A stretch of DNA of 26,079 bases, from positions 1 through 26,079 of IMG/VR virus record IMGVR_UViG_2698536454_000020; one strand, 5' to 3'. The notes beneath the pieces are model-generated. The model searched no databases, was not told the origin of the DNA, and saw only the letters and a list, made by a program, of their open reading frames with translations. Shown in pieces: positions 3,238-26,079 of this stretch (the first letter of the stretch is position 1; each line of letters begins with the position of its first letter). Source of the DNA: a virus (taxonomy: Duplodnaviria; Heunggongvirae; Uroviricota; Caudoviricetes). Position numbers and translations under genes: made by a program.

Positions 3238-3509
3238 GTATTCGTATTGAAATTGGCGAACGTTATGTCGTTACCAGTGACAGCTTTCAGTTTATTCTCC
3301 ACGAGAAAAAGAGAGCGGAAAGCGGTAAAAACGCCGGTCAGGAATGGCTGGCGGTGGTTGGTTATTACCCGAAATTAAGCCAGCTCGTTTCCGGCCTGAT
3401 GCATCACGATATTCTGACCGGAAGCGCAAAGTCTTTTGCTGATTTAAACGGGCAGGTTGAGCAACTCAGCAAGCGTTGTTCAGAGGCTTTTGGCTCATAT
3501 GGCCGTTAA
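3234..3509 (+). CDS. Hypothetical early protein (P2 orf83 position), 91 aa
   Basis: ORF track; ATGA overlap with the upstream gene; overlaps the A start by 11 nt. Confidence 0.5.
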   Translation: MSIRIEIGERYVVTSDSFQFILHEKKRAESGKNAGQEWLAVVGYYPKLSQLVSGLMHHDILTGSAKSFADLNGQVEQLSKRCSEAFGSYGR

Positions 3510-5778
3510 AGCCTCCGGGCGTTTTGTCCCTCCGTCAGCATTTGCCGCAGGCACCGGTAAGACGTTTACCGGTGCTTATGCATGGAACGCGCCACGCGAG
3601 GCCGTCGGGCGCGAAAGACCCCTTACACGTGACGAGATGCGTCAGGTGCAAGGTGTTTTATCCACGATTAACCGCCTGCCTTACTTTTTGCGTTCGCTGT
3701 TTACTTCACGCTATGACTACATCCGGCGCAATAAAAGCCCGGTGCACGGGTTTTATTTCCTCACATCCACTTTTCAGCGTCGTTTATGGCCGCGCATTGA
3801 GCGCGTGAATCAGCGCCATGAAATGAACACCGACGCGTCGTTACTGTTTCTGGCAGAGCGTGACCACTATGCGCGCCTGCCGGGAATGAATGACAAGGAG
3901 CTGAAAAAATTTGCCGCCCGTATCTCATCGCAGCTTTTCATGATGTATGAGGAACTCTGCGATGCCTGGGTGGATGCCCATGGCGAAAAAGAATCGCTGT
4001 TTACGGATGAGGCGCAGGCTCACCTGTATGGTCATGTTGCTGGCGCTGCACGTGCTTTCAATATTTCCCCGCTCTACTGGAAAAAATACCGTAAAGGACA
4101 GATGACCACGAGGCAGGCATATTCTGCCATTGCCCGCCTGTTTAACGATGAGTGGTGGACTCATCAGCTTAAAGGCCAGCGTATGCGCTGGCATGAGGCG
4201 TTACTGATTGCTGTCGGGGAGGTCAATAAAGACCGTTCTCCTTATGCCAGTAAACATGCCATTCGTGATGTGCGTGCACGCCGCCAGGCAAATCTGGAAT
4301 TTCTTAAATCGTGTGACCTTGAAAACAGGGAAACCGGCGAGCGCATCGACCTTATCAGTAAGGTGATGGGCAGTATTTCTAATCCTGAAATTCGCCGGAT
4401 GGAGCTGATGAACACCATCGCCGGAATTGAGCGTTACGCCGCCGCAGAGGGTGATGTGGGGATGTTTATCACGCTGACCGCGCCGTCAAAGTATCACCCG
4501 ACACGTCAGGTCGGAAAAGGCGAAAGTAAAACCGTCCAGCTAAATCACGGCTGGAACGATGAGGCATTTAATCCAAAGGATGCGCAGCGTTATCTCTGCC
4601 ATATCTGGAGCCTGATGCGCACGGCATTCAAGGATAATGATTTACAGGTCTACGGTTTGCGTGTCGTCGAGCCACACCACGACGGAACGCCGCACTGGCA
4701 TATGATGCTTTTTTGTCATCCACGCCAGCGTAACCAGATTATTGAAATCATGCGTCGCTATGCGCTCAAAGAGGATGGCGACGAAAGAGGAGCCGCGCGA
4801 AACCGTTTTCAGGCAAAACACCTTAACCGGGGCGGTGCTGCGGGATATATCGCGAAATACATCTCAAAAAACATCGACGGCTATGCACTGGATGGTCAGC
4901 TCGATAATGATACCGGTAGGCCGCTGAAAGACACAGCTGCGGCTGTTACCGCATGGGCGTCAACGTGGCGCATTCCGCAATTTAAAACGGTTGGTCTGCC
5001 GACAATGGGGGCTTACCGTGAACTACGCAAATTGCCTCGCGGCGTCAGCATTGCTGATGAGTTTGACGAGCGCGTCGAGGCTGCACGCGCCGCTGCAGAC
5101 AGTGGTGATTTTGCGTTGTATATCAGCGCGCAGGGCGGGGCAAATGTCCCGCGCGATTGTCAGACTGTCAGGGTCGCCCGTAGCCCGTCGGATGACGTTA
5201 ACGAGTACGAGGAAGAAGTCGAGAGAGTGGTCGGCATTTACGCGCCGCATCTCGGCGCGCGTCATATTCATATCACCAGAACGACGGACTGGCGCATTGT
5301 TCCGAAAGTGCCGGTCGTTGAGCCTTTGACTTTAAAAAGCGGCATCGCCGCGCCTCGGAGTCCTGTCAATAACTGTGGAAAGCTCACCGGTGGTGATACT
5401 TCGTTACCGGCTCCCACACCTTCTGAGCACGCCGCAGCAGTGCTTAATCTGGTTGATGACGGTGTTATTGAATGGAATGACCAGGAGGTCGTGAGGGCGC
5501 TCAGGGGCGCATTAAAACAAGGTCTGAGAAGACCAAACCGTCAGCAAAGAAACGGAAGCCCGTTAAAACAGCATGAAATGGCACCATCGGCCAGACTGAC
5601 CCGGTCAGAACGAATGCAAATTACCCGTATCCGCGTTGACCTTGCTCAGAACGGTATCAGGCCGCAGCGATGGGAGCTTGAGGCGCTGGCGCGTGGAGCA
5701 ATTGTAAATTACGACGGGAAAAAATTCACGTATCCAGTCGCTGATGAGTGGCGGGGATTCTCAGCAGTAATGGAGTGA
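3499..5778 (+). CDS. A: Rolling-circle replication initiator endonuclease (P2 gpA-like), about 759 aa from the ATG at 3499
   Basis: ORF track 3457..5778; start moved to 3499 (MAVKASGRFVPP...) to match the remembered gpA N-terminus; HUH-type motif PHWHMMLF and tyrosine motif GYIAKYISKN present. Confidence 0.88.
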   Translation: MAVKASGRFVPPSAFAAGTGKTFTGAYAWNAPREAVGRERPLTRDEMRQVQGVLSTINRLPYFLRSLFTSRYDYIRRNKSPVHGFYFLTSTFQRRLWPRIERVNQRHEMNTDASLLFLAERDHYARLPGMNDKELKKFAARISSQLFMMYEELCDAWVDAHGEKESLFTDEAQAHLYGHVAGAARAFNISPLYWKKYRKGQMTTRQAYSAIARLFNDEWWTHQLKGQRMRWHEALLIAVGEVNKDRSPYASKHAIRDVRARRQANLEFLKSCDLENRETGERIDLISKVMGSISNPEIRRMELMNTIAGIERYAAAEGDVGMFITLTAPSKYHPTRQVGKGESKTVQLNHGWNDEAFNPKDAQRYLCHIWSLMRTAFKDNDLQVYGLRVVEPHHDGTPHWHMMLFCHPRQRNQIIEIMRRYALKEDGDERGAARNRFQAKHLNRGGAAGYIAKYISKNIDGYALDGQLDNDTGRPLKDTAAAVTAWASTWRIPQFKTVGLPTMGAYRELRKLPRGVSIADEFDERVEAARAAADSGDFALYISAQGGANVPRDCQTVRVARSPSDDVNEYEEEVERVVGIYAPHLGARHIHITRTTDWRIVPKVPVVEPLTLKSGIAAPRSPVNNCGKLTGGDTSLPAPTPSEHAAAVLNLVDDGVIEWNDQEVVRALRGALKQGLRRPNRQQRNGSPLKQHEMAPSARLTRSERMQITRIRVDLAQNGIRPQRWELEALARGAIVNYDGKKFTYPVADEWRGFSAVME

Positions 5779-6043
5779 ACGTCGCCAGTTGCGAAAATTA
5801 TTTACAGGGGGCAGCGTTAAGCATCTAAAGATCTTGTTCTATGATTAGAATGTTTCCTCGTTGCACTCTCGTATAGTTATTTAATGGGAAGATGTACTCT
5901 ATATGTTGTGTTTTGGTGATAAATGAAGCCAAAGGAAGGAGATTTTGCTTGATTGATGGGCGCTCTTTGCTATACACCTTGTATTGAGAAGGAGAAGTAA
6001 TCAAGGATTAAGCTGGCTTTTGTCAAAAATCTGAAAAGCTTTT

Positions 6044-6073
6044 TTGACTGAATACGATAGCGAGTTGTACTAT
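6044..6073 (+). promoter_or_regulatory. Candidate sigma70 promoter for the island's first operon
   Basis: TTGACT (6044..6049), 18-bp spacer, TACTAT (6068..6073), about 35 bp upstream of the ATG at 6108. Confidence 0.35.
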
Positions 6074-6107
6074 TTGCGCCCTCAAAAGTAACCGGCGGCT
6101 GGGTAAA

Positions 6108-6482
6108 ATGGGGAAGCAAGGCAAAGGCAAAGGCAACAAAAATCAGGTTAAGGTTACGTGGGCTCAGGCGTGGCGGGATGTAATGATAAGAGCCATGTCT
6201 AATGGTCAGTTGATACCTATTACCATCAGTATTATTTTAATGATTGCTGCATGGAGGTTACCAAAAACTGACTTGTCCAATTTAGCCTTCTCTATTGTTG
6301 ATGGCTTTAAGGAGCATTCCTTGGTTGGTTGGGCTATCTCGGTAATAGTGGGTTTGGCTTGGTCTGCACATGCGCGAATCATGAGGCGCTGTTTTAGTTC
6401 CGAGGCACAGAGAATCGGTAACGAGAAAACAAAGTATCAACAAAGACAGACCACTCAAGCCTTGGGTACAAGTGATAAATAG
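6108..6482 (+). CDS. Small membrane protein, 124 aa, lysine-rich N-terminus and two predicted TM helices
   Basis: ORF track; hydrophobic stretches LIPITISIILMIAAW and LVGWAISVIVGLAWSA; low-GC island in the P2 tin/old hotspot slot. Confidence 0.55.
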   Translation: MGKQGKGKGNKNQVKVTWAQAWRDVMIRAMSNGQLIPITISIILMIAAWRLPKTDLSNLAFSIVDGFKEHSLVGWAISVIVGLAWSAHARIMRRCFSSEAQRIGNEKTKYQQRQTTQALGTSDK

Positions 6483-6502
6483 TTGTTTATTTAGGAGTTA
6501 TT

Positions 6503-7060
6503 ATGCTGACAGTGCTGTTTTATGTGCTGTTGGGTTTAGGCGCAGCACACTTCATTTACGAGCGAATCATTTTGCCGTCCATCCGACTTCATTATAGAAA
6601 CCAATTGTTTGCGCTTCGTGATGTCGCTAGGAGGAAAATCATTGATGGAGGTTCCGATACTTCCATGCAAGCGGCAACACTTGTGCATGACTCATTGAAT
6701 AACGCTATCAATAGATTGCATTTACTCACGTTGCCAAACAAATTTCGTGCTCAAAAGCGTATGGCAGAAAACCATGCAATAAGGCAGAAAATTCGGCGTG
6801 AGATAGATGTTTTCAAACGCTGTGATGATAGAGAAGTTGTTGATGTACTGTTTAAATCCGGTCGGATACTTGAAAATGTACTGTTATTCAATAGCTTAAT
6901 GTTATTGCTTTACATGTTTCCATTTGTCCTTGCTGTATGGTTCTGTGTTAGGGTCATAAAGACAGCAAGTAGTTTAGTACAGTGGGTCAAAGGAAGAGAT
7001 TTAGAGGAAGCTATAATGCTGCTTCCTGATACTCAGGTTGAAAAGGTTGTATACGCATAA
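6503..7060 (+). CDS. Membrane protein, 185 aa, N-terminal TM helix, central soluble region, C-terminal TM helix
   Basis: ORF track; AGGAG Shine-Dalgarno at 6493..6497; hydrophobic segments at residues about 2..18 and 128..150; 20 bp downstream of the preceding ORF. Confidence 0.6.
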   Translation: MLTVLFYVLLGLGAAHFIYERIILPSIRLHYRNQLFALRDVARRKIIDGGSDTSMQAATLVHDSLNNAINRLHLLTLPNKFRAQKRMAENHAIRQKIRREIDVFKRCDDREVVDVLFKSGRILENVLLFNSLMLLLYMFPFVLAVWFCVRVIKTASSLVQWVKGRDLEEAIMLLPDTQVEKVVYA

Positions 7061-7062
7061 AA

Positions 7063-7089
7063 ATCACCCCTTAGGGGGTGATTTTTTTA
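7063..7089 (+). terminator. Rho-independent terminator after the membrane-protein operon
   Basis: ATCACCCC-TTAG-GGGGTGAT perfect 8-bp stem followed by TTTTTTT, immediately after the stop at 7058..7060. Confidence 0.65.
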
Positions 7090-7255
7090 CATGACTTTTG
7101 ATTAGCTGACATTGTAAATCCGCATGTATCAGATGCATTGTTTTGCATGTGGAAATGGGTGTTTTCACTGCCAGCTATCGCTACATGTAGCAAAAACACG
7201 GGCTTAATAAGAAATCATTCTGCCATAAGGCATAACTTCCCCGCGTGCTCAGGTA

Positions 7256-7285
7256 TTGACGTCATAGATATGGATCTTTTTTAAT
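7256..7285 (+). promoter_or_regulatory. Candidate promoter for the TIR-like gene
   Basis: TTGACG (7256..7261), 17-18 bp spacer, TTTAAT-like -10; AAGG Shine-Dalgarno before the ATG at 7300. Confidence 0.3.
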
Positions 7286-7299
7286 CAAGGTATGGTATT

Positions 7300-8247
7300 A
7301 TGAAGATATTTATTAGTTGGTCAGGTCAGGACAGCCTGGAGATAGCAAAAGTATTACGGGATTGGATACCGAATGTTATTCAAGTAGCTGAGCCGTACGT
7401 ATCAGCGGAAGATATTGATAAAGGCACTCGCTGGGCGACTGATATATCAAAGGAACTTGATGACTCTTCTTATGGGATTATTTGCCTTACAAAAAATAAT
7501 ATTAATGCACCGTGGATAAATTTTGAGGCGGGTGCTTTAGGTAAAAAGGTTGATAAGAGCCGGGTTAGTCCTTTCTTGTTTAAAATTAAACCATCTGAGA
7601 TAACAGGCCCAATATTACAATTCCAGTATACTCGTTCGGATGATAAGAACGATATTTTGAAGTTGATGTTGTCAATAAATAATCAAGCAGGATTTTTGAC
7701 TGAAGAACGCTTAACTAAAGCTTTCGAGCAATGGTGGCCAAGTTTAGAGCGTGAGTTAGATAACATTCAAGATATTAACCCTGTAGATAAAGATTCCACT
7801 AAAAAAACAAAAGGTGATTCGACTTCTGAGATACAAAATCTTTCCAAAATTGTTGAAAGTTTGCTGGATATTAGCCGAACAAATCACCAATTATTGCGTG
7901 ATCCAGCATCATTATTGCCAGAAGAATATGTTAGCAAAATAATAAACAGGGAAGGGCGTAAAGAAACTGTTTTAAAAATTGTAGCTTCTGATTTATTATC
8001 CATGCATCATTCACTAATTCGTGTAAAAAGAAGATTTATTCGCCGTGGTATTGATGAAACATCTAGGAGCGAGTTAATTGAATCATTAAATAAAATGATA
8101 ATGGATTGTTCTAGAGTAATCGCTCACTTAGATAATTATTGTGGGGCTTCATCAAACAATATGTTCAATAGTGCGCTTAGATTGCGGACCAGAAATTTAA
8201 TTGACATGATGGATGAGGAGGATGCAGAACGGGATGAAATGGAATAA
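7300..8247 (+). CDS. TIR-like domain protein (N-terminal ~135 aa) fused to an unrecognised ~175-aa helical C-terminal domain; candidate anti-phage NADase or signal-generating protein
   Basis: N-terminus MKIFISWSGQDS and the block ICLTKNNINAPWINFEAG (W72, E76; GAG at 7525..7527) fit the bacterial TIR-like pattern (F-I-S-x-S/H start, [SA]-x-W-[CI]-x-x-E). Own promoter and terminator-bounded unit; low GC. Confidence 0.6.
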   Translation: MKIFISWSGQDSLEIAKVLRDWIPNVIQVAEPYVSAEDIDKGTRWATDISKELDDSSYGIICLTKNNINAPWINFEAGALGKKVDKSRVSPFLFKIKPSEITGPILQFQYTRSDDKNDILKLMLSINNQAGFLTEERLTKAFEQWWPSLERELDNIQDINPVDKDSTKKTKGDSTSEIQNLSKIVESLLDISRTNHQLLRDPASLLPEEYVSKIINREGRKETVLKIVASDLLSMHHSLIRVKRRFIRRGIDETSRSELIESLNKMIMDCSRVIAHLDNYCGASSNNMFNSALRLRTRNLIDMMDEEDAERDEME

Positions 8248-8297
8248 TCGATTTTGACTAATCATAAATAATTTTGCATATATAAACTTATAATGCC

Positions 8298-8320
8298 GCA
8301 GCCGCTATTTTTCAGCGGCT
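8298..8320. other. Hairpin (CAGCCGCT / AGCGGCTG stem) flanked by direct repeats CTTATAATG
   Basis: Read from sequence about 50 bp after the TIR-like gene stop; no clean T-run after the stem, so terminator function is uncertain. Confidence 0.3.
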
Positions 8321-8791
8321 GTATATCGCTTATAATGGGTATGTTATTTTTATTTTGATAAAATCATTAAAATTGTCGATGTTATATGAATGCACATGTA
8401 TTATTAATGTTAGAAGATTATGCCTGCTTACGGCTATTGTGCTGAATTCAACTATGAACGCATCAGTATTAAAATCGTTCCATGAAATGTTCTTCGTCTA
8501 CAGCAGATGATGGGCAACGAAAAAATGACGCTGAGTGAGTTGGTCGGGGAGAATTGTTAGAGGTATTTATGGAGTGGTTTAATAATATCGGTCAATCCTG
8601 AGTTGCAGCATCACATAGACGATAGGGAATCTCTCCAGTCGTTCTGGAATGGCAGCGTTGAACAACAAGCACAGCGAGGCGTTAGATGCCCATCAGATTG
8701 ACACAGAGGGTTTATGAATCGCTGGGATTTACTTAGTTTGAAAAATAATATATTTATATGTTTTTGTATTGTGTTTGTTAAGGAGTTTGGA

Positions 8792-8997
8792 TTGAAAAGA
8801 AAACTGATTTGTGTTATGGCTTTTTGGGGGCGTTGCTGGCTGGTTGTAATGAGAGTAATAAAAAAGAAGTTGAGGGTTGTATTGAAAGAGGTGTCCAATA
8901 TTTTATAGAGATTGGTTCTTACCCTAAATTAAGTGATGGGCGTGATGCTGTGAAAGTTGCTACTGAACGTTGTAATAGAACAATAACGGCTTTCTGA
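8792..8997 (+). pseudogene. Small lipoprotein gene (~70 aa) interrupted by a -1 frameshift in a T5G5 homopolymer run (8821..8830)
   Basis: AGGAG at 8781..8785 then TTG 8792; frame 2 gives MKRKLICVMAF..., frame 1 continues ...LGALLAGCNESNKK... to the stop at 8995..8997. One extra T would give a textbook lipoprotein signal peptide with LAGC lipobox. Confidence 0.4.
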
Positions 8998-8999
8998 TA

Positions 9000-9917
9000 A
9001 TGGATTATACGAGCTATATAATAGGGCAGCTTCAGGTTGAGGATATTATTGATGCAATTAAAGGCGTTAATAATACTAATGTCATAAAAGATTATGTGCT
9101 GCCTGTAGTATTACCAATTATATCTTCTGTGCTGAGTTACTTTATTGCAACTAGGTTGTTTTATCGGCAGGAGTACCTTAAAGCACAAAGAAGAAAGGTA
9201 AGCGTTGTAAATAAATGTATTTATGACTACTTTTCTGCAATGACAACGTTGTTGCAAATTAAAGGGAATTATTATGGTGGGGTAAGTATAAGTGAAAATC
9301 CTATCGAGAGGGCTTTAGCTTTTCCTGTTGTGGTTTTTTCTGGTGCTCCTCTATCATCAGATTTAAGTGAGTTGGCCTGTATATTGAGTCAAAAGGGAGT
9401 AGGGAATAATAGAGAGACAGCAAAGACTACTAACTGGGGGGATGCTTTTGCTGTTAGTGATATAGCAAGAAGGTTTAACAGCCTATTGGCTGCATTAAAT
9501 GTTAGGAATGATTTTGATGACACCTATAGAGGAATGATTATTGAATCAACAGGTTCACCTTTGCCTACGATGCGTTTTAAAAATGATGATATTGTTAATG
9601 CTATAGGTAGTAATAAGGCAGCTTATTACATTGATATTACTGAGCAAATAATGATTATGATAGATGTTTTGTTGCTTGATATTAATCTGTTGCTCAAAGA
9701 GTTGCCATTGTATGCTGAATCGCTGTTTGACAAAAGAGTAATGCAAGAAGATTCAGGGATTCTTAAATTCAATGATTTGCACGAACGTTTTCCTCTACTT
9801 ATGAAACCTGTAACGCCACCTTCGATTAAACTCATGTCTGATTATTTGGGGTACAGTGAAGATGAGATCTTACGACGCTATCCATACCCGTTCTTTAATA
9901 TGCATGATTGTGAATGA
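9000..9917 (+). CDS. Hypothetical membrane-anchored protein, 305 aa, one N-proximal TM helix, no recognisable domain
   Basis: ORF track; ATG overlaps the lipoprotein gene stop region (TGATAATG), implying co-transcription; hydrophobic segment VLPVVLPIISSVLSYFIAT; AT-rich codon usage. Confidence 0.6.
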   Translation: MDYTSYIIGQLQVEDIIDAIKGVNNTNVIKDYVLPVVLPIISSVLSYFIATRLFYRQEYLKAQRRKVSVVNKCIYDYFSAMTTLLQIKGNYYGGVSISENPIERALAFPVVVFSGAPLSSDLSELACILSQKGVGNNRETAKTTNWGDAFAVSDIARRFNSLLAALNVRNDFDDTYRGMIIESTGSPLPTMRFKNDDIVNAIGSNKAAYYIDITEQIMIMIDVLLLDINLLLKELPLYAESLFDKRVMQEDSGILKFNDLHERFPLLMKPVTPPSIKLMSDYLGYSEDEILRRYPYPFFNMHDCE

Positions 9918-10021
9918 ATGTGCATATGTCAGAAGCCGTTTTTATTGTCAGTTATCGTCAGTGCTGGCGCGCTCTTGGAGTGTTCATGCAACTGCATTAA
10001 AACCGCCCCACGAAGCGGGCG

Positions 10022-10040
10022 GGCGAGGCGGGGAAAGCAC
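10022..10040. other. Candidate cos site (P2-type 19-nt cohesive end GGCGAGGCGGGGAAAGCAC)
   Basis: Exact 19-mer present in a GC-rich gap between the island and portal gene Q, where cos lies in a P2 prophage; the cos sequence is recalled from memory, not searched. Confidence 0.5.
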
Positions 10041-10170
10041 TGCGCGCTGGCGGTGGTGATGATTGTCTGAGCGCGTCGTGATGGCGTTTAGATTGTGCGC
10101 CGGGGCGTTGGTGTGTCTGCGGGGTGTTTTGTACAGTGGCGAGCGTGTGAGGGCGTGATGACGGGGGTGT

Positions 10171-10192
10171 AAAAAAGCCGCCCGCAGGCGGC
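10171..10192 (-). terminator. Rho-independent terminator downstream of Q on the minus strand
   Basis: Plus strand shows AAAAAA then GCCGCC-CGCA-GGCGGC; on the minus strand this is a GC hairpin followed by TTTTTT, immediately after the Q stop at 10198..10200. Confidence 0.55.
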
Positions 10193-10197
10193 GATGT

Positions 10198-11232
10198 TCA
10201 GCCGTTGTCAGTGTCCAGTGAGTAGTTTTTAAAGCGGATGACCTCCTGACCGAGCCAGCCGTTTATTTCCCGAATCCTGTCCTGTAACGGGATAAGTTCA
10301 TTGCGGACAAAGACCTTTGCCACTTTCTCAATATCGCCCAGCGACCCGACGTTTTCCGGCTTGCCACCCATCAACTGAAAGGGGATGCGGTGCGCGTCCA
10401 GCAGGTCAGCGGCGCTGGCTTTTTTGATATTAAAAAAATCGTCCTTCGTGGCCACTTCACTGAGCGGGATAATTTTAATGCCGTCGGCTTTTCCCTGTGG
10501 GGCATAGAGAAACAGGTTTTTAAAGTTATTGCGGCCTTTCGACTTCACCATGTTTTCGCGGAGCATTTCGATATCGTTGCGATCCTGCACGGCATCAGTG
10601 ACGTACATGATGTATCCGGCATGTGCGCCGTTTTCGTAATACTTGCGGCGGAACAGCGTGGCCGACTCATTCAGCCAGGCCGAGTTAAGGGCGCTGAGAT
10701 ATTCCGGCAGGCCGTACAGCTCCTGATTAATATCCGGCTCCAGCAGGTGAAACACGGAGCCGGGCGTGAAAGGTGTCGGCTCGTTGAAGGACGGCACCCA
10801 CCAGTAAACATCCTCCTCCACCCCACGGCGGGTATATTTTGCCGGTGAGGTTTCCAGTCTGATGACCTTACCGGTGGTGCTGTATCGCTTTTCCAGAAAC
10901 GCATTACCGAACACCAGAAAATCCAGCACAAAGCGGCTGAAATCCTGTTGCGAAAGCCACGGGTGCGGGATAAACGTTGAGGCCAGAATATTACGTTTGA
11001 CGTAAATCGGGGAGCTGTGATGCACGGCAGCACGAAGGCTTTTTGCCAGCCCGGTAAAGCTGACTGGTGGCTCATACCATCTGCCGTTACTGATGCACTC
11101 GACGTAATCCAGAATGTCACGGCGGTCGAGTACCGGCACCGGCTCGCCAAAGGTGAATGCCTCCATTTTCGGGGCGCTGGCGGTCATTGTTTTTGCCGCT
11201 GGTCGCGGTGTTTTCCCTTTTTTCTTGCTCAT
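10198..11232 (-). CDS. Q: Portal protein (P2 gpQ-like), 344 aa
   Basis: 344-aa ORF, same length as P2 gpQ; adjacent to and co-oriented with the large terminase, divergent from O. Confidence 0.88.
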   Translation of the reverse strand: MSKKKGKTPRPAAKTMTASAPKMEAFTFGEPVPVLDRRDILDYVECISNGRWYEPPVSFTGLAKSLRAAVHHSSPIYVKRNILASTFIPHPWLSQQDFSRFVLDFLVFGNAFLEKRYSTTGKVIRLETSPAKYTRRGVEEDVYWWVPSFNEPTPFTPGSVFHLLEPDINQELYGLPEYLSALNSAWLNESATLFRRKYYENGAHAGYIMYVTDAVQDRNDIEMLRENMVKSKGRNNFKNLFLYAPQGKADGIKIIPLSEVATKDDFFNIKKASAADLLDAHRIPFQLMGGKPENVGSLGDIEKVAKVFVRNELIPLQDRIREINGWLGQEVIRFKNYSLDTDNG

Positions 11233-21337: not shown

Positions 21338-21941
21338 TTCGCGACTGCTGCCGACCGGCTCATCGCCGCTTGAAGTCGCCGCCGCAAAAGCCTGTGCGGA
21401 AATTGAAAAAACGCCGGTCAGTATTCGTGAGCTGTGGAACCCGGATACCTGTCCGGCAAATCTGCTGCCGTGGCTGGCGTGGTCATTTTCGGTTGACCGC
21501 TGGGATGATAAGTGGCCGGAAGCGACAAAACGCGCTGTTATCCGCGATGCGTATTTCATTCACTGCCATAAGGGCACTATAGGCGCAATCCGGCGTGTGG
21601 TGGAGCCGCTCGGCTATCTGATTGAGGTGAGGGAGTGGTGGCAGCTCAACGAGGAGCCGGGGACGTTCCGCATCGTTGTTGGCGTGCTTGAGCAGGGTAT
21701 TACCGAGGAAATGTATCAGGAGCTGGAGCGCCTCGTTGCTGATGCAAAACCGGCAAGCCGCCATCTGACGGGACTGGCTATCAGTTTAAGTACAACCGGC
21801 AACATTTTTGCCGGTGCAGGATGCTATCACGGCGACGCCCTGACGGTTTATCCCTACACCCCGGAGGCCATTATTGTCGGAGGGGATTATTTCCCGGCCT
21901 CGGCCATTCATTTAATTGATAACCTGAGAGTAAACGCATGA
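21330..21941 (+). CDS. I: Baseplate/tail protein I-like, 203 aa
   Basis: ORF overlapping the J stop and the H start; synteny. Its 3' 234 bp lie inside the long inverted repeat. Confidence 0.78.
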   Translation: MSDSRLLPTGSSPLEVAAAKACAEIEKTPVSIRELWNPDTCPANLLPWLAWSFSVDRWDDKWPEATKRAVIRDAYFIHCHKGTIGAIRRVVEPLGYLIEVREWWQLNEEPGTFRIVVGVLEQGITEEMYQELERLVADAKPASRHLTGLAISLSTTGNIFAGAGCYHGDALTVYPYTPEAIIVGGDYFPASAIHLIDNLRVNA

Positions 21942-22783
21942 CAGTGAAATACTACGCCATTCTGACTAATCAGGGCGCAGCACGGCTGGCTAACGCGACG
22001 ATGCTCGGCAGTAAGCTGAATCTGACGCAAATGGCAGTTGGTGATGCGAATGGTGTCTTGCCGACACCAGACCCGGCACAGACAAAACTGATTAACCAGA
22101 AACGCATCGCGCCGCTGAATCTTCTGAGTGTTGACCCGAACAACCAGAGCCAGATTATTGCGGAGCAAATCATCCCTGAGAACGAGGGCGGATTCTGGAT
22201 CCGTGAGATTGGGCTTTATGATGATGAAGGCGTACTCATTGCGGTGGCGAACTGCCCGGAAACGTACAAACCGCAGTTGCAGGAAGGCAGTGGTCGTACC
22301 CAGACTATCCGCATGATTCTGGTTGTCACGAATACCGAAGCTATTACGCTGAAAATCGACCCGTCGGTGGTACTGGCGACCCGTAAATATGTGGATGATG
22401 AAGTCCTGGAATTAAGGCTGTATGTGGATGACCAGATGAGCAAACACATTGCCGCACAGGACCCTCATACCCAGTATGCACAGAAACATAATCCGACATT
22501 TACCGGAGAACCAAAAGCGCCGACGCCTGCCGCAGGAAATAACACCACGCGGATTGCGACCACTGCGTTTGTACAGGCCGCTATTACCGCTCTGATTAAC
22601 GGTGCGCCTGACACGCTGGACACACTGAAAGAAATTGCCGCGGCCATTAACAATGACCCGAAATTCAGCACCACCATTAACAATGCGCTGGCAGGTAAAC
22701 AACCGCTGGACAATACGCTGACTCATTTGAGCGGAAAGGATGTTGCCGGTCTTCTCGCATACCTTGGTTTGGGAGAAGGTGCT
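21708..22783. repeat. Left arm of a 1076-bp near-perfect inverted repeat (3' end of I, constant part of H, site 1)
   Basis: Reverse-complement identity with 24492..25567 (coordinates sum to 47275); confirmed by identical ORFs on opposite strands (22412..22726 - and 24549..24863 +; 21908..22168 - and 25107..25367 +). Confidence 0.85.
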
Positions 22784-23221
22784 CCAGCTATTGGCGTTCC
22801 GTTCTTCTGGCCGTCCGCTGCAATGCCAAATACTGTAATCGACAGCTGGTCCAGTATGGTGTTTTTGAAGTTCAACGGCGCGAAATTCTCTGCCACTGAT
22901 TATCCTGTGCTGGCGAAAGTATTTCCTTCGCTGGTATTACCTGAAGCCCGCGGTGATTTCATTCGTATCTGGGATGACGGGCGAGGTACAGACGGTGGTC
23001 GCGAATTATTAAGCTGGCAGGCAGCTACAAACTTTTCTCAGTTTGCCGGGAATATAGGCGGAGGTGCGGGACACGCAATTAACTTTCATGATGGCATCGC
23101 CGGAAATCAGCCAGGATTTTCACGATTTAATTTAACCAGTAACTCTGTGGGTGATGGTGTGAATTTTGTTGCTGTCAGACCGCGAAATATTGCATTTAAC
23201 TTTCTGGTGAGGGCTAAATAA
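21938..23221 (+). CDS. H: Tail fibre protein H-like, 427 aa: constant N-terminal part (to about 22765) plus variable C-terminal cassette Hv1
   Basis: ORF track; N-terminal domain typical of P2/Mu-type tail fibres; a hix/gix-like crossover site lies in frame at 22752..22777. Confidence 0.82.
   Translation: MTVKYYAILTNQGAARLANATMLGSKLNLTQMAVGDANGVLPTPDPAQTKLINQKRIAPLNLLSVDPNNQSQIIAEQIIPENEGGFWIREIGLYDDEGVLIAVANCPETYKPQLQEGSGRTQTIRMILVVTNTEAITLKIDPSVVLATRKYVDDEVLELRLYVDDQMSKHIAAQDPHTQYAQKHNPTFTGEPKAPTPAAGNNTTRIATTAFVQAAITALINGAPDTLDTLKEIAAAINNDPKFSTTINNALAGKQPLDNTLTHLSGKDVAGLLAYLGLGEGAPAIGVPFFWPSAAMPNTVIDSWSSMVFLKFNGAKFSATDYPVLAKVFPSLVLPEARGDFIRIWDDGRGTDGGRELLSWQAATNFSQFAGNIGGGAGHAINFHDGIAGNQPGFSRFNLTSNSVGDGVNFVAVRPRNIAFNFLVRAK
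22752..22777 (+). other. hix/gix-like 26-bp recombination site 1 (TTCTCGCATACCTTGGTTTGGGAGAA) inside H
   Basis: Imperfect palindrome around a central TT; resembles remembered hixL TTCTTGAAAACCAAGGTTTTTGATAA and gixR; sits exactly at the constant/variable boundary of H. Confidence 0.6.
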
Positions 23222-23814
23222 TGAAACCTGTTTTTGATGAAAATGGGCTGGCTACAGTGCCGGGCGATATGCGTTGTTTTTATTATGATGCTGAAACATC
23301 TGAGTATACGGGCTGGTCTGATGAATATATTAATACTGGCGTAAGTATGCCCGCCTGTTCCACTGGTATTGACCCGGGCGAAAACATTCCGGGGAAAGTG
23401 GCAGTATTTACGGGTAAGGAATGGAGCTATGAAGAAGACCATCGCAATGAGACTGTTTACTCAACAGAAAATGGCGCAGCTGTTACAGTGGATTATATCG
23501 GTGCCATCAAAAACGGTTATGTCACGCTTTCACCGTTAACGCCATATGATAAATGGGATGGTGAGAAATGGGTGACAGATACTGAGGCACAGCATAACGC
23601 CGCAGTAGAAGCAGCAGAAGCACAGCGCCAGTCACTGATTGATGCAGCAATGGCTTCCATTAGTCTGATTCAGCTGAAATTACAGGCCGGACGGAAACTG
23701 ACTCAGGCAGAAACAACCCGACTTAACGCCGTGCTGGATTACATTGACGCGGTGACGGCAACAGATACCAGCACCGCGCCGGATGTCATCTGGCCTGAAC
23801 TGCCGGAGGCGTAG
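23221..23814 (+). CDS. G: Tail fibre assembly protein (Tfa/gpG/Mu-U family), 197 aa
   Basis: Immediately follows H; C-terminal ...[13 protein letters not shown] motif typical of tail-fibre assembly chaperones. Confidence 0.78.
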
Positions 23815-24214
23815 GCCATTCAATATCGGGTGCTGTTGAAGTATCAACACGCATCAGCAGCACACGGTATTTCTTCCATTCGGTGAGAGTTGAAGTTTCT
23901 TCATCAGTTGCGATATCAGCATCAACAGCATCCTGACGCCAGGATATTTCACTGTCAGCTTTTTCCCGTAATTGGGATTTTTTAACTTCAGTAATAGCTA
24001 TTAATTCCTTTTTGGTCGGCTGAGGAATATCTATCAGTGCTGGTTTTCCATTCAGTGTTCCAATCTGTTTTCCTGGTGGAATATCCATAAATAACTTTTT
24101 ATGTTCTTCCTCACTGACTATTACACCATCATCAGGCCACAGACCTGATGCCTCAAATTTTTCTTTCTCCGATATGGGGAAAAAGCCATTTGCTTTAGCG
24201 CTCCATACGTACAT
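23786..24214 (-). CDS. Second, convergent tail fibre assembly protein (alternative Tfa), 142 aa
   Basis: Minus-strand ORF; C-terminus ...[20 protein letters not shown] shares the Tfa motif; 3' ends of the two tfa genes overlap at 23786..23814. Confidence 0.72.
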
Positions 24215-24511
24215 ATCAATACCCCACCGCTATAATGTCCACATTAAATCCCCCGGGACCTGCCTGCCAGATGCTGGCCCCTGTTAATGATTTTGTTTGA
24301 TGAACAACCGCCACATTTGCTGGCGATTGTGTTTCAGTTGTTACAGTACCGATATCATTCCAGTTAATTGAGATGGAATAGTTCGTTGTTGTAAACGACC
24401 GTGGGAAAGTTATGTGTCTTACATTGGTGCCAACAGGAAATCCAAGATAAACACGCTGAATTATCATTCCTCCAGGTAACATAACCCAGTTAGCACCTTC
24501 TCCAAAACCAA
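24122..24511. repeat. First copy of a 390-bp direct repeat (5' end of the minus-strand tfa gene, Hv2 cassette, half of the crossover site)
   Basis: Identical to 25569..25958 (offset 1447 bp); the copies diverge at the centre of the crossover sites. Confidence 0.85.
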
Positions 24512-25337
24512 GGTATGCGAGAAGACCGGCAACATCCTTTCCGCTCAAATGAGTCAGCGTATTGTCCAGCGGTTGTTTACCTGCCAGCGCATTGTTAATG
24601 GTGGTGCTGAATTTCGGGTCATTGTTAATGGCCGCGGCAATTTCTTTCAGTGTGTCCAGCGTGTCAGGCGCACCGTTAATCAGAGCGGTAATAGCGGCCT
24701 GTACAAACGCAGTGGTCGCAATCCGCGTGGTGTTATTTCCTGCGGCAGGCGTCGGCGCTTTTGGTTCTCCGGTAAATGTCGGATTATGTTTCTGTGCATA
24801 CTGGGTATGAGGGTCCTGTGCGGCAATGTGTTTGCTCATCTGGTCATCCACATACAGCCTTAATTCCAGGACTTCATCATCCACATATTTACGGGTCGCC
24901 AGTACCACCGACGGGTCGATTTTCAGCGTAATAGCTTCGGTATTCGTGACAACCAGAATCATGCGGATAGTCTGGGTACGACCACTGCCTTCCTGCAACT
25001 GCGGTTTGTACGTTTCCGGGCAGTTCGCCACCGCAATGAGTACGCCTTCATCATCATAAAGCCCAATCTCACGGATCCAGAATCCGCCCTCGTTCTCAGG
25101 GATGATTTGCTCCGCAATAATCTGGCTCTGGTTGTTCGGGTCAACACTCAGAAGATTCAGCGGCGCGATGCGTTTCTGGTTAATCAGTTTTGTCTGTGCC
25201 GGGTCTGGTGTCGGCAAGACACCATTCGCATCACCAACTGCCATTTGCGTCAGATTCAGCTTACTGCCGAGCATCGTCGCGTTAGCCAGCCGTGCTGCGC
25301 CCTGATTAGTCAGAATGGCGTAGTATTTCACTGTCAT
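24216..25337 (-). CDS. Alternative tail fibre gene (inverted copy of the H constant part fused to variable cassette Hv2), 373 aa
   Basis: Minus-strand ORF; the first 27x residues are identical to H, diverging right after the crossover site; the nucleotide sequence is the reverse complement of 21938..22783. Confidence 0.65.
24498..24523 (+). other. hix/gix-like recombination site 2 (TTCTCCAAAACCAAGGTATGCGAGAA), inverted relative to site 1
   Basis: Reverse complement of site 1 with one mismatch; lies at the Hv2/constant boundary. Confidence 0.6.
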
Positions 25338-25567
25338 GCGTTTACTCTCAGGTTATCAATTAAATGAATGGCCGAGGCCGGGAAATAATCCCCTCCGACA
25401 ATAATGGCCTCCGGGGTGTAGGGATAAACCGTCAGGGCGTCGCCGTGATAGCATCCTGCACCGGCAAAAATGTTGCCGGTTGTACTTAAACTGATAGCCA
25501 GTCCCGTCAGATGGCGGCTTGCCGGTTTTGCATCAGCAACGAGGCGCTCCAGCTCCTGATACATTTC
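25338..25567 (-). pseudogene. Inverted, 5'-truncated duplicate of the 3' end of gene I (last ~76 codons)
   Basis: C-terminus of minus ORF 25334..25666 is identical to the I C-terminus (MYQELERLVADAK...LRVNA); no corresponding 5' part. Confidence 0.6.
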
Positions 25568-25568
25568 A

Positions 25569-25958
25569 TACACCATCATCAGGCCACAGACCTGATGCCT
25601 CAAATTTTTCTTTCTCCGATATGGGGAAAAAGCCATTTGCTTTAGCGCTCCATACGTACATATCAATACCCCACCGCTATAATGTCCACATTAAATCCCC
25701 CGGGACCTGCCTGCCAGATGCTGGCCCCTGTTAATGATTTTGTTTGATGAACAACCGCCACATTTGCTGGCGATTGTGTTTCAGTTGTTACAGTACCGAT
25801 ATCATTCCAGTTAATTGAGATGGAATAGTTCGTTGTTGTAAACGACCGTGGGAAAGTTATGTGTCTTACATTGGTGCCAACAGGAAATCCAAGATAAACA
25901 CGCTGAATTATCATTCCTCCAGGTAACATAACCCAGTTAGCACCTTCTCCAAAACCAA
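25569..25958. repeat. Second copy of the 390-bp direct repeat
   Basis: See first copy; begins abruptly after the inverted I fragment (junction at 25568). Confidence 0.85.
25663..25944 (-). other. Duplicate Hv2 variable tail-fibre cassette (promoterless, no constant N-terminal part attached)
   Basis: C-terminal 94 aa of minus ORF 25663..26064 are identical to the Hv2 C-terminus; upstream of it (beyond site 3) the reading frame is unrelated to H. Confidence 0.6.
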
Positions 25959-25970
25959 CGTTTATGAAAA
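25945..25970 (+). other. hix/gix-like recombination site 3 (TTCTCCAAAACCAACGTTTATGAAAA), outer boundary of the invertible region
   Basis: Left half identical to site 2, right half divergent but still matching the hix consensus (..AAACC NN GGTTT../..CGTTTATGAAAA); the flanking sequence to the right is not tail-fibre sequence, as for gixR next to gin in Mu. Confidence 0.55.
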
Positions 25971-26079
25971 TGCAGAGATAAGTAAGCGTCGTCTCAGCAC
26001 CGTCTGGCAGATCCTGAAATTCCTGAGAGAATAGTGGACACCAAATATGGTGGACGCTATCCATGAAATCATTAACCGC

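Follow-up and report, generated by a model that had tools for sequence, protein, structure and literature searches.

The window analysed here, a stretch of 26,079 nucleotides from IMG/VR record IMGVR_UViG_2698536454_000020, is a P2-like prophage of Escherichia coli whose open reading frame (ORF) at 7300..8247 encodes a protein with an N-terminal TIR domain, and it is near-certain that this ORF belongs, as the TIR gene, to the anti-phage cargo of Escherichia phage P2_AC1 (AC1), known as Rst_2TM_1TM_TIR. The other two components of that system are transmembrane (TM) proteins, designated 2TM and 1TM, whose genes lie just upstream. The main new result comes from our comparison across genomes: what was published as a system of three genes appears to consist of two neighbouring modules, a TM pair and a TIR gene, each mobile on its own. 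As the best explanation overall we lean, if only slightly, towards an AC1 TIR gene that would act as a self-contained sensor-effector and a TM pair that would constitute an independent cassette.

According to RefSeq and Pfam annotation, the integrase, cox and gpA genes of the prophage lie to the left of the cargo and the portal, terminase, scaffold and capsid genes to its right. The interval between gpA and the portal gene (5779..10197) is AT-rich, with a GC content of 0.35-0.41 versus 0.53 in the flanks, and holds five ORFs, all on the plus strand (Table 1). This interval corresponds to the hotspot of P2 reported by Rousset et al. (2022, PMC9122126), and the cargo DNA (5779..10021) is 99.7% identical to that of AC1, which occupies the same site. 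The encoded proteins agree in 124/126 (2TM), 185/185 (1TM), 314/315 (TIR, gp02 of AC1) and 305/305 positions (the product of orf305, farther downstream); the differences are trivial, namely A283V in the TIR protein and an indel of GK at the N-terminus of 2TM. Full-length matches to the PADLOC models 2TM-TIR (PDLC02978), 1TM-TIR (PDLC02977) and TIR-TM (PDLC03016) were found at 6108..8247 on the plus strand, so that all three component profiles of Rst_2TM_1TM_TIR are present, adjacent and co-oriented. The locus is listed under this name in DefenseFinder as well. Rousset et al. (2022, PMC9122126) isolated AC1, found its lysogen to resist lambda and LF82_P8, and showed that the cloned three-gene block protects against lambda, LF82_P8 and P2. 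A reading of the DNA made earlier from its letters alone (the sequence-only reading) had proposed a defence candidate in a prophage defence hotspot, and on both counts it was right, a block 99.7% identical being anti-phage by experiment; it missed, however, that the locus is already known: its isolation, cloning and anti-phage activity were published in 2022, and both databases list it. The discovery value of the locus itself is therefore small. No later mechanistic work on it was found in our literature searches.

The question of whether the three genes form one system was addressed by tblastn over all fetched loci. The complete trio was present in two loci, both of AC1 type, while 93 loci contained the TIR gene alone and 10 the TM pair alone. 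No 2TM or 1TM gene was detected near the TIR relatives in the 80 fetched loci of species-representative genomes (0/80), where small ORFs that public gene calls may miss were covered by a re-check with tblastn and ORF listings, some loci being short contigs. The trio was likewise not detected in one broad survey, and among complete E. coli genomes it is confined to one lineage of at least 99.6% identity, with AC1-type cargo in only 14 of 5426 genomes, all at least 99% identical.

The TIR gene is found alone in the very same hotspot between gpA and the portal gene, where it is the only substantial ORF, in E. coli (L104, 78% identity) and in Klebsiella (L088/L089, 74%). Others among the closer relatives are solitary on a Serratia chromosome between housekeeping regulators (61%) and at the edges of prophages or satellites in Enterobacter and other Enterobacteriaceae (53%, 47%). 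A Providencia relative (52%) lies in an integrase island beside a type I restriction-modification (R-M) system, and a Klebsiella relative (60%) follows directly on rep in small Rep/Mob/RelE plasmids (L090-L092). On these plasmids and on a 4.7-kb Serratia plasmid (NZ_CP091124.1) the TIR homologs (about 55-61% identity) overlap the end of the replicase gene; the Klebsiella plasmid protein is common, occurring in 365 blocks of the assembly index. In distant loci no partner family recurred beside the TIR gene: even the most frequent neighbour cluster was limited to 7 of about 77 loci, and integrases and TnpV were the usual neighbours. From this distribution we infer that the TIR gene is probably autonomous. 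The sequence-only reading had called the protein stand-alone, which does not hold literally, since two membrane-protein genes on the same strand lie just upstream and are counted as its partners in databases and literature; the comparative genomics favours autonomy, and the description may thus be right in substance.

The boundaries of DNA homology are consistent with this picture. Homology to the pair-only and TIR-only hotspots breaks at 7088 and 7277, delimiting a TM-pair cassette at 6018..7088 and a TIR cassette at 7277..8350, which also differ in GC content (0.41 vs 0.35). An intrinsic terminator stands right after the 1TM gene, at the 3' end of the TM-pair cassette; none of 200 shuffled sequences folded as well, and an equivalent is present in all pair-only loci. 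The TIR cassette, in turn, travels with a GC-rich hairpin downstream of its stop codon, and a similar hairpin was found in the TIR-only loci L104 and L089. On genomic evidence, neither the co-occurrence nor the single operon expected of one functional unit was found for Rst_2TM_1TM_TIR.

The 1TM family comprises 49 clusters, all from Enterobacterales, and in its pair-only loci a 2TM homolog always lies directly upstream and no TIR gene is present. Such loci occupy the Q-holin or lysis-terminase positions in lambdoid prophages of E. coli O91, K. aerogenes and K. pneumoniae, and the gpA-portal hotspot in P2/186-like prophages of E. coli and Serratia (85%, 81% and 72% identity). By hydropathy the 1TM protein has two hydrophobic stretches, of which the first covers residues 1-19 and the second, at about 122-159, could accommodate one or two helices, and the published name probably understates its membrane topology; in the 2TM protein the second TM segment scores weakly on the Kyte-Doolittle scale. 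Neither protein contains a known ligand-binding domain or matches Pfam or NCBIfam.

The pair may by itself serve exclusion or defence. The AC1 phenotype could be due to the TM pair, for instance by superinfection exclusion at the membrane or by abortive infection, with the TIR protein contributing nothing to the phenotype as tested and either acting on other phages or having a different role. That the pair occurs by itself as a moron of lambdoid and P2-like prophages implies an independent function on which selection can act, and AC1 protection does cover lambda and P2, temperate phages of the kind that membrane proteins encoded by prophages classically exclude. However, the TIR gene is itself the sole cargo at sites typical of defence genes, namely in the P2 hotspot, at the ends of prophages, on small plasmids and in an R-M island; strong purifying selection acts on its catalytic motif, which implies that this gene, too, is selected individually; and there is no indication of which module acts on which phage. 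We regard an AC1 phenotype owed to the TM pair as rather improbable.

The TIR ORF, a 945-nt open frame within DNA of 35% GC, is far beyond chance expectation; its product has 1511 homologous clusters and matches a PHROG family at 2.6e-112. The motifs on which the sequence-only reading had relied (MKIFISWSGQDS, ICLTKNN and APWINFEAG) are present, and E76 is encoded where it had been placed. The TIR assignment itself was borne out by a Pfam match to PF13676 (TIR_2) over residues 3-113 (40.5 bits vs a cut-off of 28, E=4.7e-10) and by a predicted flavodoxin-like TIR fold. E76 and W72 align with the glutamate and tryptophan of the AbTir motif DWTNYE, whose glutamate we take to be E208, so that the W-x-x-x-E arrangement of the catalytic glutamate is present. 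E76 is invariant in alignments of 40 and 113 homologs, and W72 is also invariant in the larger one; the proposal that E76 occupies the catalytic position is thus upheld. Two AlphaFold models, made from 40 and 113 sequences (mean pLDDT 73.6 and 78.5), both contain a confident TIR fold at residues ~1-130, a helix at 135-155, disorder at ~156-173, helices at 174-200, 208-215, 217-249 and 253-281, and a terminal helix at 290-314 of low confidence. The earlier division into a TIR domain of about 135 residues and a C-terminal domain from about residue 140 accordingly stands for the N-terminal TIR domain, and its bounds are refined to ~1-130, followed by the helix (135-155), a linker (156-173), a conserved motif (174-210) and a tail (211-315). 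The conserved positions of the motif are E186, L189, R193, N195, L199, R200, P202, P207 and Y210. With a maximum 19-residue Kyte-Doolittle score of 1.04, the protein lacks a hydrophobic segment and is therefore soluble despite the PADLOC label TIR-TM.

The C-terminal region had been described as matching nothing recognisable, and this remained so: searches with Pfam, PDB sequences, a representative library and predicted folds found no relative, the matches amounting to no more than generic helical hairpins. When PDB sequences were searched with the family profile and with the isolated TIR domain, only weak TIR matches appeared (AbTir, E ~0.3-1). Matches of the C-terminal region in the PDB were designed helical bundles, which we ascribe to compositional or helical bias and rejected. 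A phmmer search with the C-terminal region alone against 1.84 billion representatives yielded six matches, which were the family itself, its fragments, or one chance match in a repetitive protein, and thus gave no support for the tail as a swappable module.

TIR relatives were found in 269 species-representative genomes, which span Proteobacteria, Bacteroidota, Bacillota, Acidobacteriota, Planctomycetota, Nitrospirota and other phyla and include one Methanosarcina, with 50-57% identity over residues 1 to ~205. The archaeal member, on the chromosome of Methanosarcina hadiensis (L013, 5983..6888), is 46% identical over residues 1-268 and therefore indicates horizontal transfer across domains. 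All share a core consisting of the TIR domain, the helix at 135-155, the linker and the motif at 174-210. Beyond this core there are two tail classes: a conserved tail of ~142 residues (proteins of ~340 residues, 51/77 loci) and a short variable tail, to which that of the window protein belongs. The longer tail (L003-L082, e.g. L015 6001..7032 and L047 6001..7020) is unrelated to the tail of the window protein, and Pfam gave no match for either class. In the lambdoid Enterobacteria phage mEp390 (H50/H51, 33766..34218) a protein with 41% identity to residues 1-150 only was found, which shares the TIR core, its C-terminal part being different or absent.

The closest relatives, those of E. coli (L104) and Klebsiella (L089), differ from the window protein in a strikingly uneven manner. 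The TIR domain (residues 1-155) is 94% identical at a dN/dS of 0.02-0.06 and the helix at 174-210 is 92-95% identical at 0.04-0.06, while the tail (211-315) retains only 40-51% identity at a dN/dS of 0.53-0.68. Such a pattern of rates is typical of a conserved enzyme joined to a fast-changing recognition surface and makes residues 211-315 a candidate specificity or sensor region, or alternatively an oligomerisation region. We also considered that the protein could be a virulence factor of the TcpC/TcpB/TirS type, mimicking host Toll-like receptor (TLR) adaptors. The domain order of Tcp proteins differs from the N-terminal TIR arrangement seen here, the hosts of relatives include free-living and environmental bacteria from many phyla as well as a Methanosarcina, the catalytic glutamate is invariant, and the locus, whose anti-phage phenotype has been published, lies in a phage defence hotspot. 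Such a function was rejected on the phyletic spread and the invariant glutamate, and we consider it extremely improbable.

Given these findings, we favour the following sequence of events for a self-contained TIR protein. The N-terminal TIR domain would be an NAD+-cleaving enzyme using E76, the conserved helix at 174-210 would couple to or regulate it, and the tail would recognise a phage-derived cue or drive oligomerisation. Upon infection the TIR domains would assemble and consume NAD+, and the infected cell would cease to support phage growth (abortive infection), as has been demonstrated for SpbK, a TIR protein encoded by a single gene. Direct consumption of NAD+ is the most parsimonious activity for a solitary, mobile TIR protein with an invariant glutamate, which cannot rely on a messenger receptor being transferred along with it. 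The TM pair would be a separately transcribed and separately mobile cassette stacked in the same hotspot and not an obligate effector of the TIR protein.

A number of observations weigh against this explanation. The three genes stand next to each other in the same orientation in AC1-type loci; Rousset et al. (2022, PMC9122126) cloned all three together, did not report single-gene constructs or mutants, and proposed signalling from the TIR protein to the TM proteins by likeness to Thoeris. Our scans of the stretch from the terminator to the TIR start revealed no convincing promoter, the relaxed one giving a single doubtful site too close to the start codon, and expression of the TIR gene may therefore depend on read-through from the TM-pair unit; the consensus scan for promoters and terminators, for its part, did not exceed shuffled expectation and missed the terminator at 7059..7088. 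Partners in distant loci may have diverged too far for tblastn to detect, which could account for part of their absence, and stacked modules may act in synergy. As to the protein, sequence alone cannot tell an NADase from an enzyme of signal synthesis, a tail that is no more than a coiled coil under relaxed constraint could also show the high dN/dS, and the inter-domain geometry of the AlphaFold models is uncertain (pTM 0.48-0.50).

The hypothesis in print is a true three-gene system in which the TIR protein senses infection and makes an NAD+-derived messenger (a cADPR isomer or a His-ADPR-like molecule) that activates 2TM and 1TM, so that the membrane is disrupted as in type II Thoeris. In its favour, the genes lie side by side on one strand and were validated as a block, the combination of a TIR protein with a TM effector exists in Thoeris, and our scans found no clear independent TIR promoter. 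However, the modules never co-occur outside the one lineage, the nearest relatives of each occupy the same hotspot without the other, and a strong terminator separates 1TM from TIR. Moreover, the TM proteins have no ligand-binding domain recognisable with Pfam or NCBIfam, the TIR family spans more than 1500 clusters in many phyla whereas that of 1TM is restricted to 49 clusters of Enterobacterales, and a solitary TIR protein on plasmids of ~4.7-9.4 kb has no effector to signal to. We therefore judge a true three-gene system unlikely, though less so than a phenotype due to the TM pair. That Rst_2TM_1TM_TIR is an accident of hotspot stacking we put at an even chance: the TIR protein with its tail would then belong to a widespread mobile family of single-gene sensor-NADases in which the hypervariable tail sets phage specificity, and the TM pair would be a separate moron of Enterobacterales, probably serving exclusion or defence.

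If so, tools requiring all three genes miss almost all instances of both modules, and the three-gene rule hides a large single-gene TIR family, with its 269 species-representative genomes, as well as a separate TM-pair module. The comparative data do not favour the sole hypothesis in print, a TIR messenger acting on TM effectors. In P2-like phages of E. coli and Klebsiella, TIR cores that are almost identical are joined to divergent tails, which makes them a natural system for mapping phage specificity.

Table 1. Position of the cargo genes, protein regions, RNA hairpins and hotspot borders in the window, and of the pair-only loci in their own records
Feature	Position	Strand	Remarks
P2 gpA replication endonuclease, left border of hotspot	3457..5778	+	PF05840 E=1.5e-124; RefSeq annotation
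2TM, small membrane protein, 124 aa	6108..6482	+	PADLOC 2TM-TIR, E=2.2e-58; phrog_33772
1TM, membrane protein, 185 aa	6503..7060	+	PADLOC 1TM-TIR, E=2.7e-75
Intrinsic terminator after 1TM, 3' end of TM-pair cassette	7059..7088	+	12-bp stem, UUAG loop, U7; dG -17.8 kcal/mol, z -5.4
TIR plus helical C-terminal protein, 315 aa; TIR component of AC1 Rst_2TM_1TM_TIR	7300..8247	+	ATG start; WP_023140578-type; PADLOC TIR-TM, E=2.3e-118
TIR domain plus extra conserved helix, residues 1-155	7300..7764	+	TIR fold ~1-130; helix 135-155
Codon of E76, putative catalytic glutamate, W72-x3-E76 motif	7525..7527	+	Alignment to AbTir; invariance
Variable linker, predicted to be disordered, residues 156-173	7765..7818	+	pLDDT <50 for 162-173 and 165-173; alignment variability
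Conserved helix/motif ELLxxSRxNHxLLRxPxxLLPxxY, residues 174-210	7819..7929	+	Common to both tail classes; low dN/dS
Fast-evolving helical tail, residues 211-315	7930..8244	+	Helices 217-249 and 253-281, pLDDT 80-88
GC-rich hairpin downstream of TIR stop, no U-run	8298..8322	+	dG -17.3, z -3.3
Third cargo cassette, separate from TIR unit: orf62 (62 aa) and orf305 (305 aa)	8809..9917 (orf62 8809..8997; orf305 9000..9917)	+	PHROG matches phrog_32041, phrog_21267
P2-type portal protein (Q), right border of hotspot	10198..11232	-	PF04860; RefSeq annotation
Pair-only loci, self-contained two-gene module with own terminator	L095 4614..5589; L096 4529..5579; L098 4594..5573; L100 4559..5558; L101/L105		

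The AC1 hotspot is best read as three stacked cassettes, the third being formed by orf62 and orf305. Neither gene matched Pfam, PADLOC or NCBIfam, and their PHROG families carry no assigned function; the product of orf305 has a single, N-terminal hydrophobic segment. The cassette occurs with other cargo and without a TIR gene in E. coli MS 16-3, and orf305 was found again, 99% identical at the protein level, beside different cargo (DUF3850 and others) in a second P2-like hotspot. Both genes are present in AC1, yet apparently lie outside the three genes cloned from it; we regard them as candidate defence or moron genes. In E. coli GCEC19 (NZ_CP137765.1) the cargo region of the hotspot is interrupted by an IS21-like ISEc12 element (istA/istB). 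At the right end of the window, the tail-fibre genes (21938..23814, plus strand) are followed by an inverted set at 23786..26064 on the minus strand, comprising a Caudo_TAP assembly gene, a tail-collar fibre gene and Gp53-like C-terminal fragments. This set looks like an alternative or invertible host-range cassette; no invertase gene was found within the window.

Among the characterised TIR systems, SpbK of ICEBs1 of Bacillus subtilis is a single gene encoding a sensor domain, a linker and a TIR domain; its product binds a phage portal protein, forms oligomers and lowers NAD+ about 100-fold, and the substitution E192Q abolishes defence (PMC11984713; PDB 9phb). The genomic solitariness of the TIR gene suggests a comparable single-gene mode of action, although the domain order is reversed (SpbK has its sensor at the N-terminus and its TIR domain at the C-terminus) and neither sequence similarity nor homology to SpbK was found beyond the TIR domain.

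Thoeris, in which a ThsB TIR protein works with a ThsA effector (a Macro-TM effector in type II), resembles the AC1 locus in having a TIR gene beside genes for membrane proteins. In contrast, the modules of the window do not co-occur in evolution, and the TM proteins have no Macro, SLOG or other known ligand-binding domain. Membership of Thoeris was rejected, as no ThsA or ThsB model of PADLOC matched at E<=1 and the neighbours contain no Macro, SLOG or SIR2 domain.

The bacterial NADases AbTir, PdTIR and BtTir carry N-terminal coiled-coil regions. Compared with these enzymes, to which the window protein is 17-23% identical, its family is set apart by an extremely conserved TIR core together with the motif at residues 174-210.
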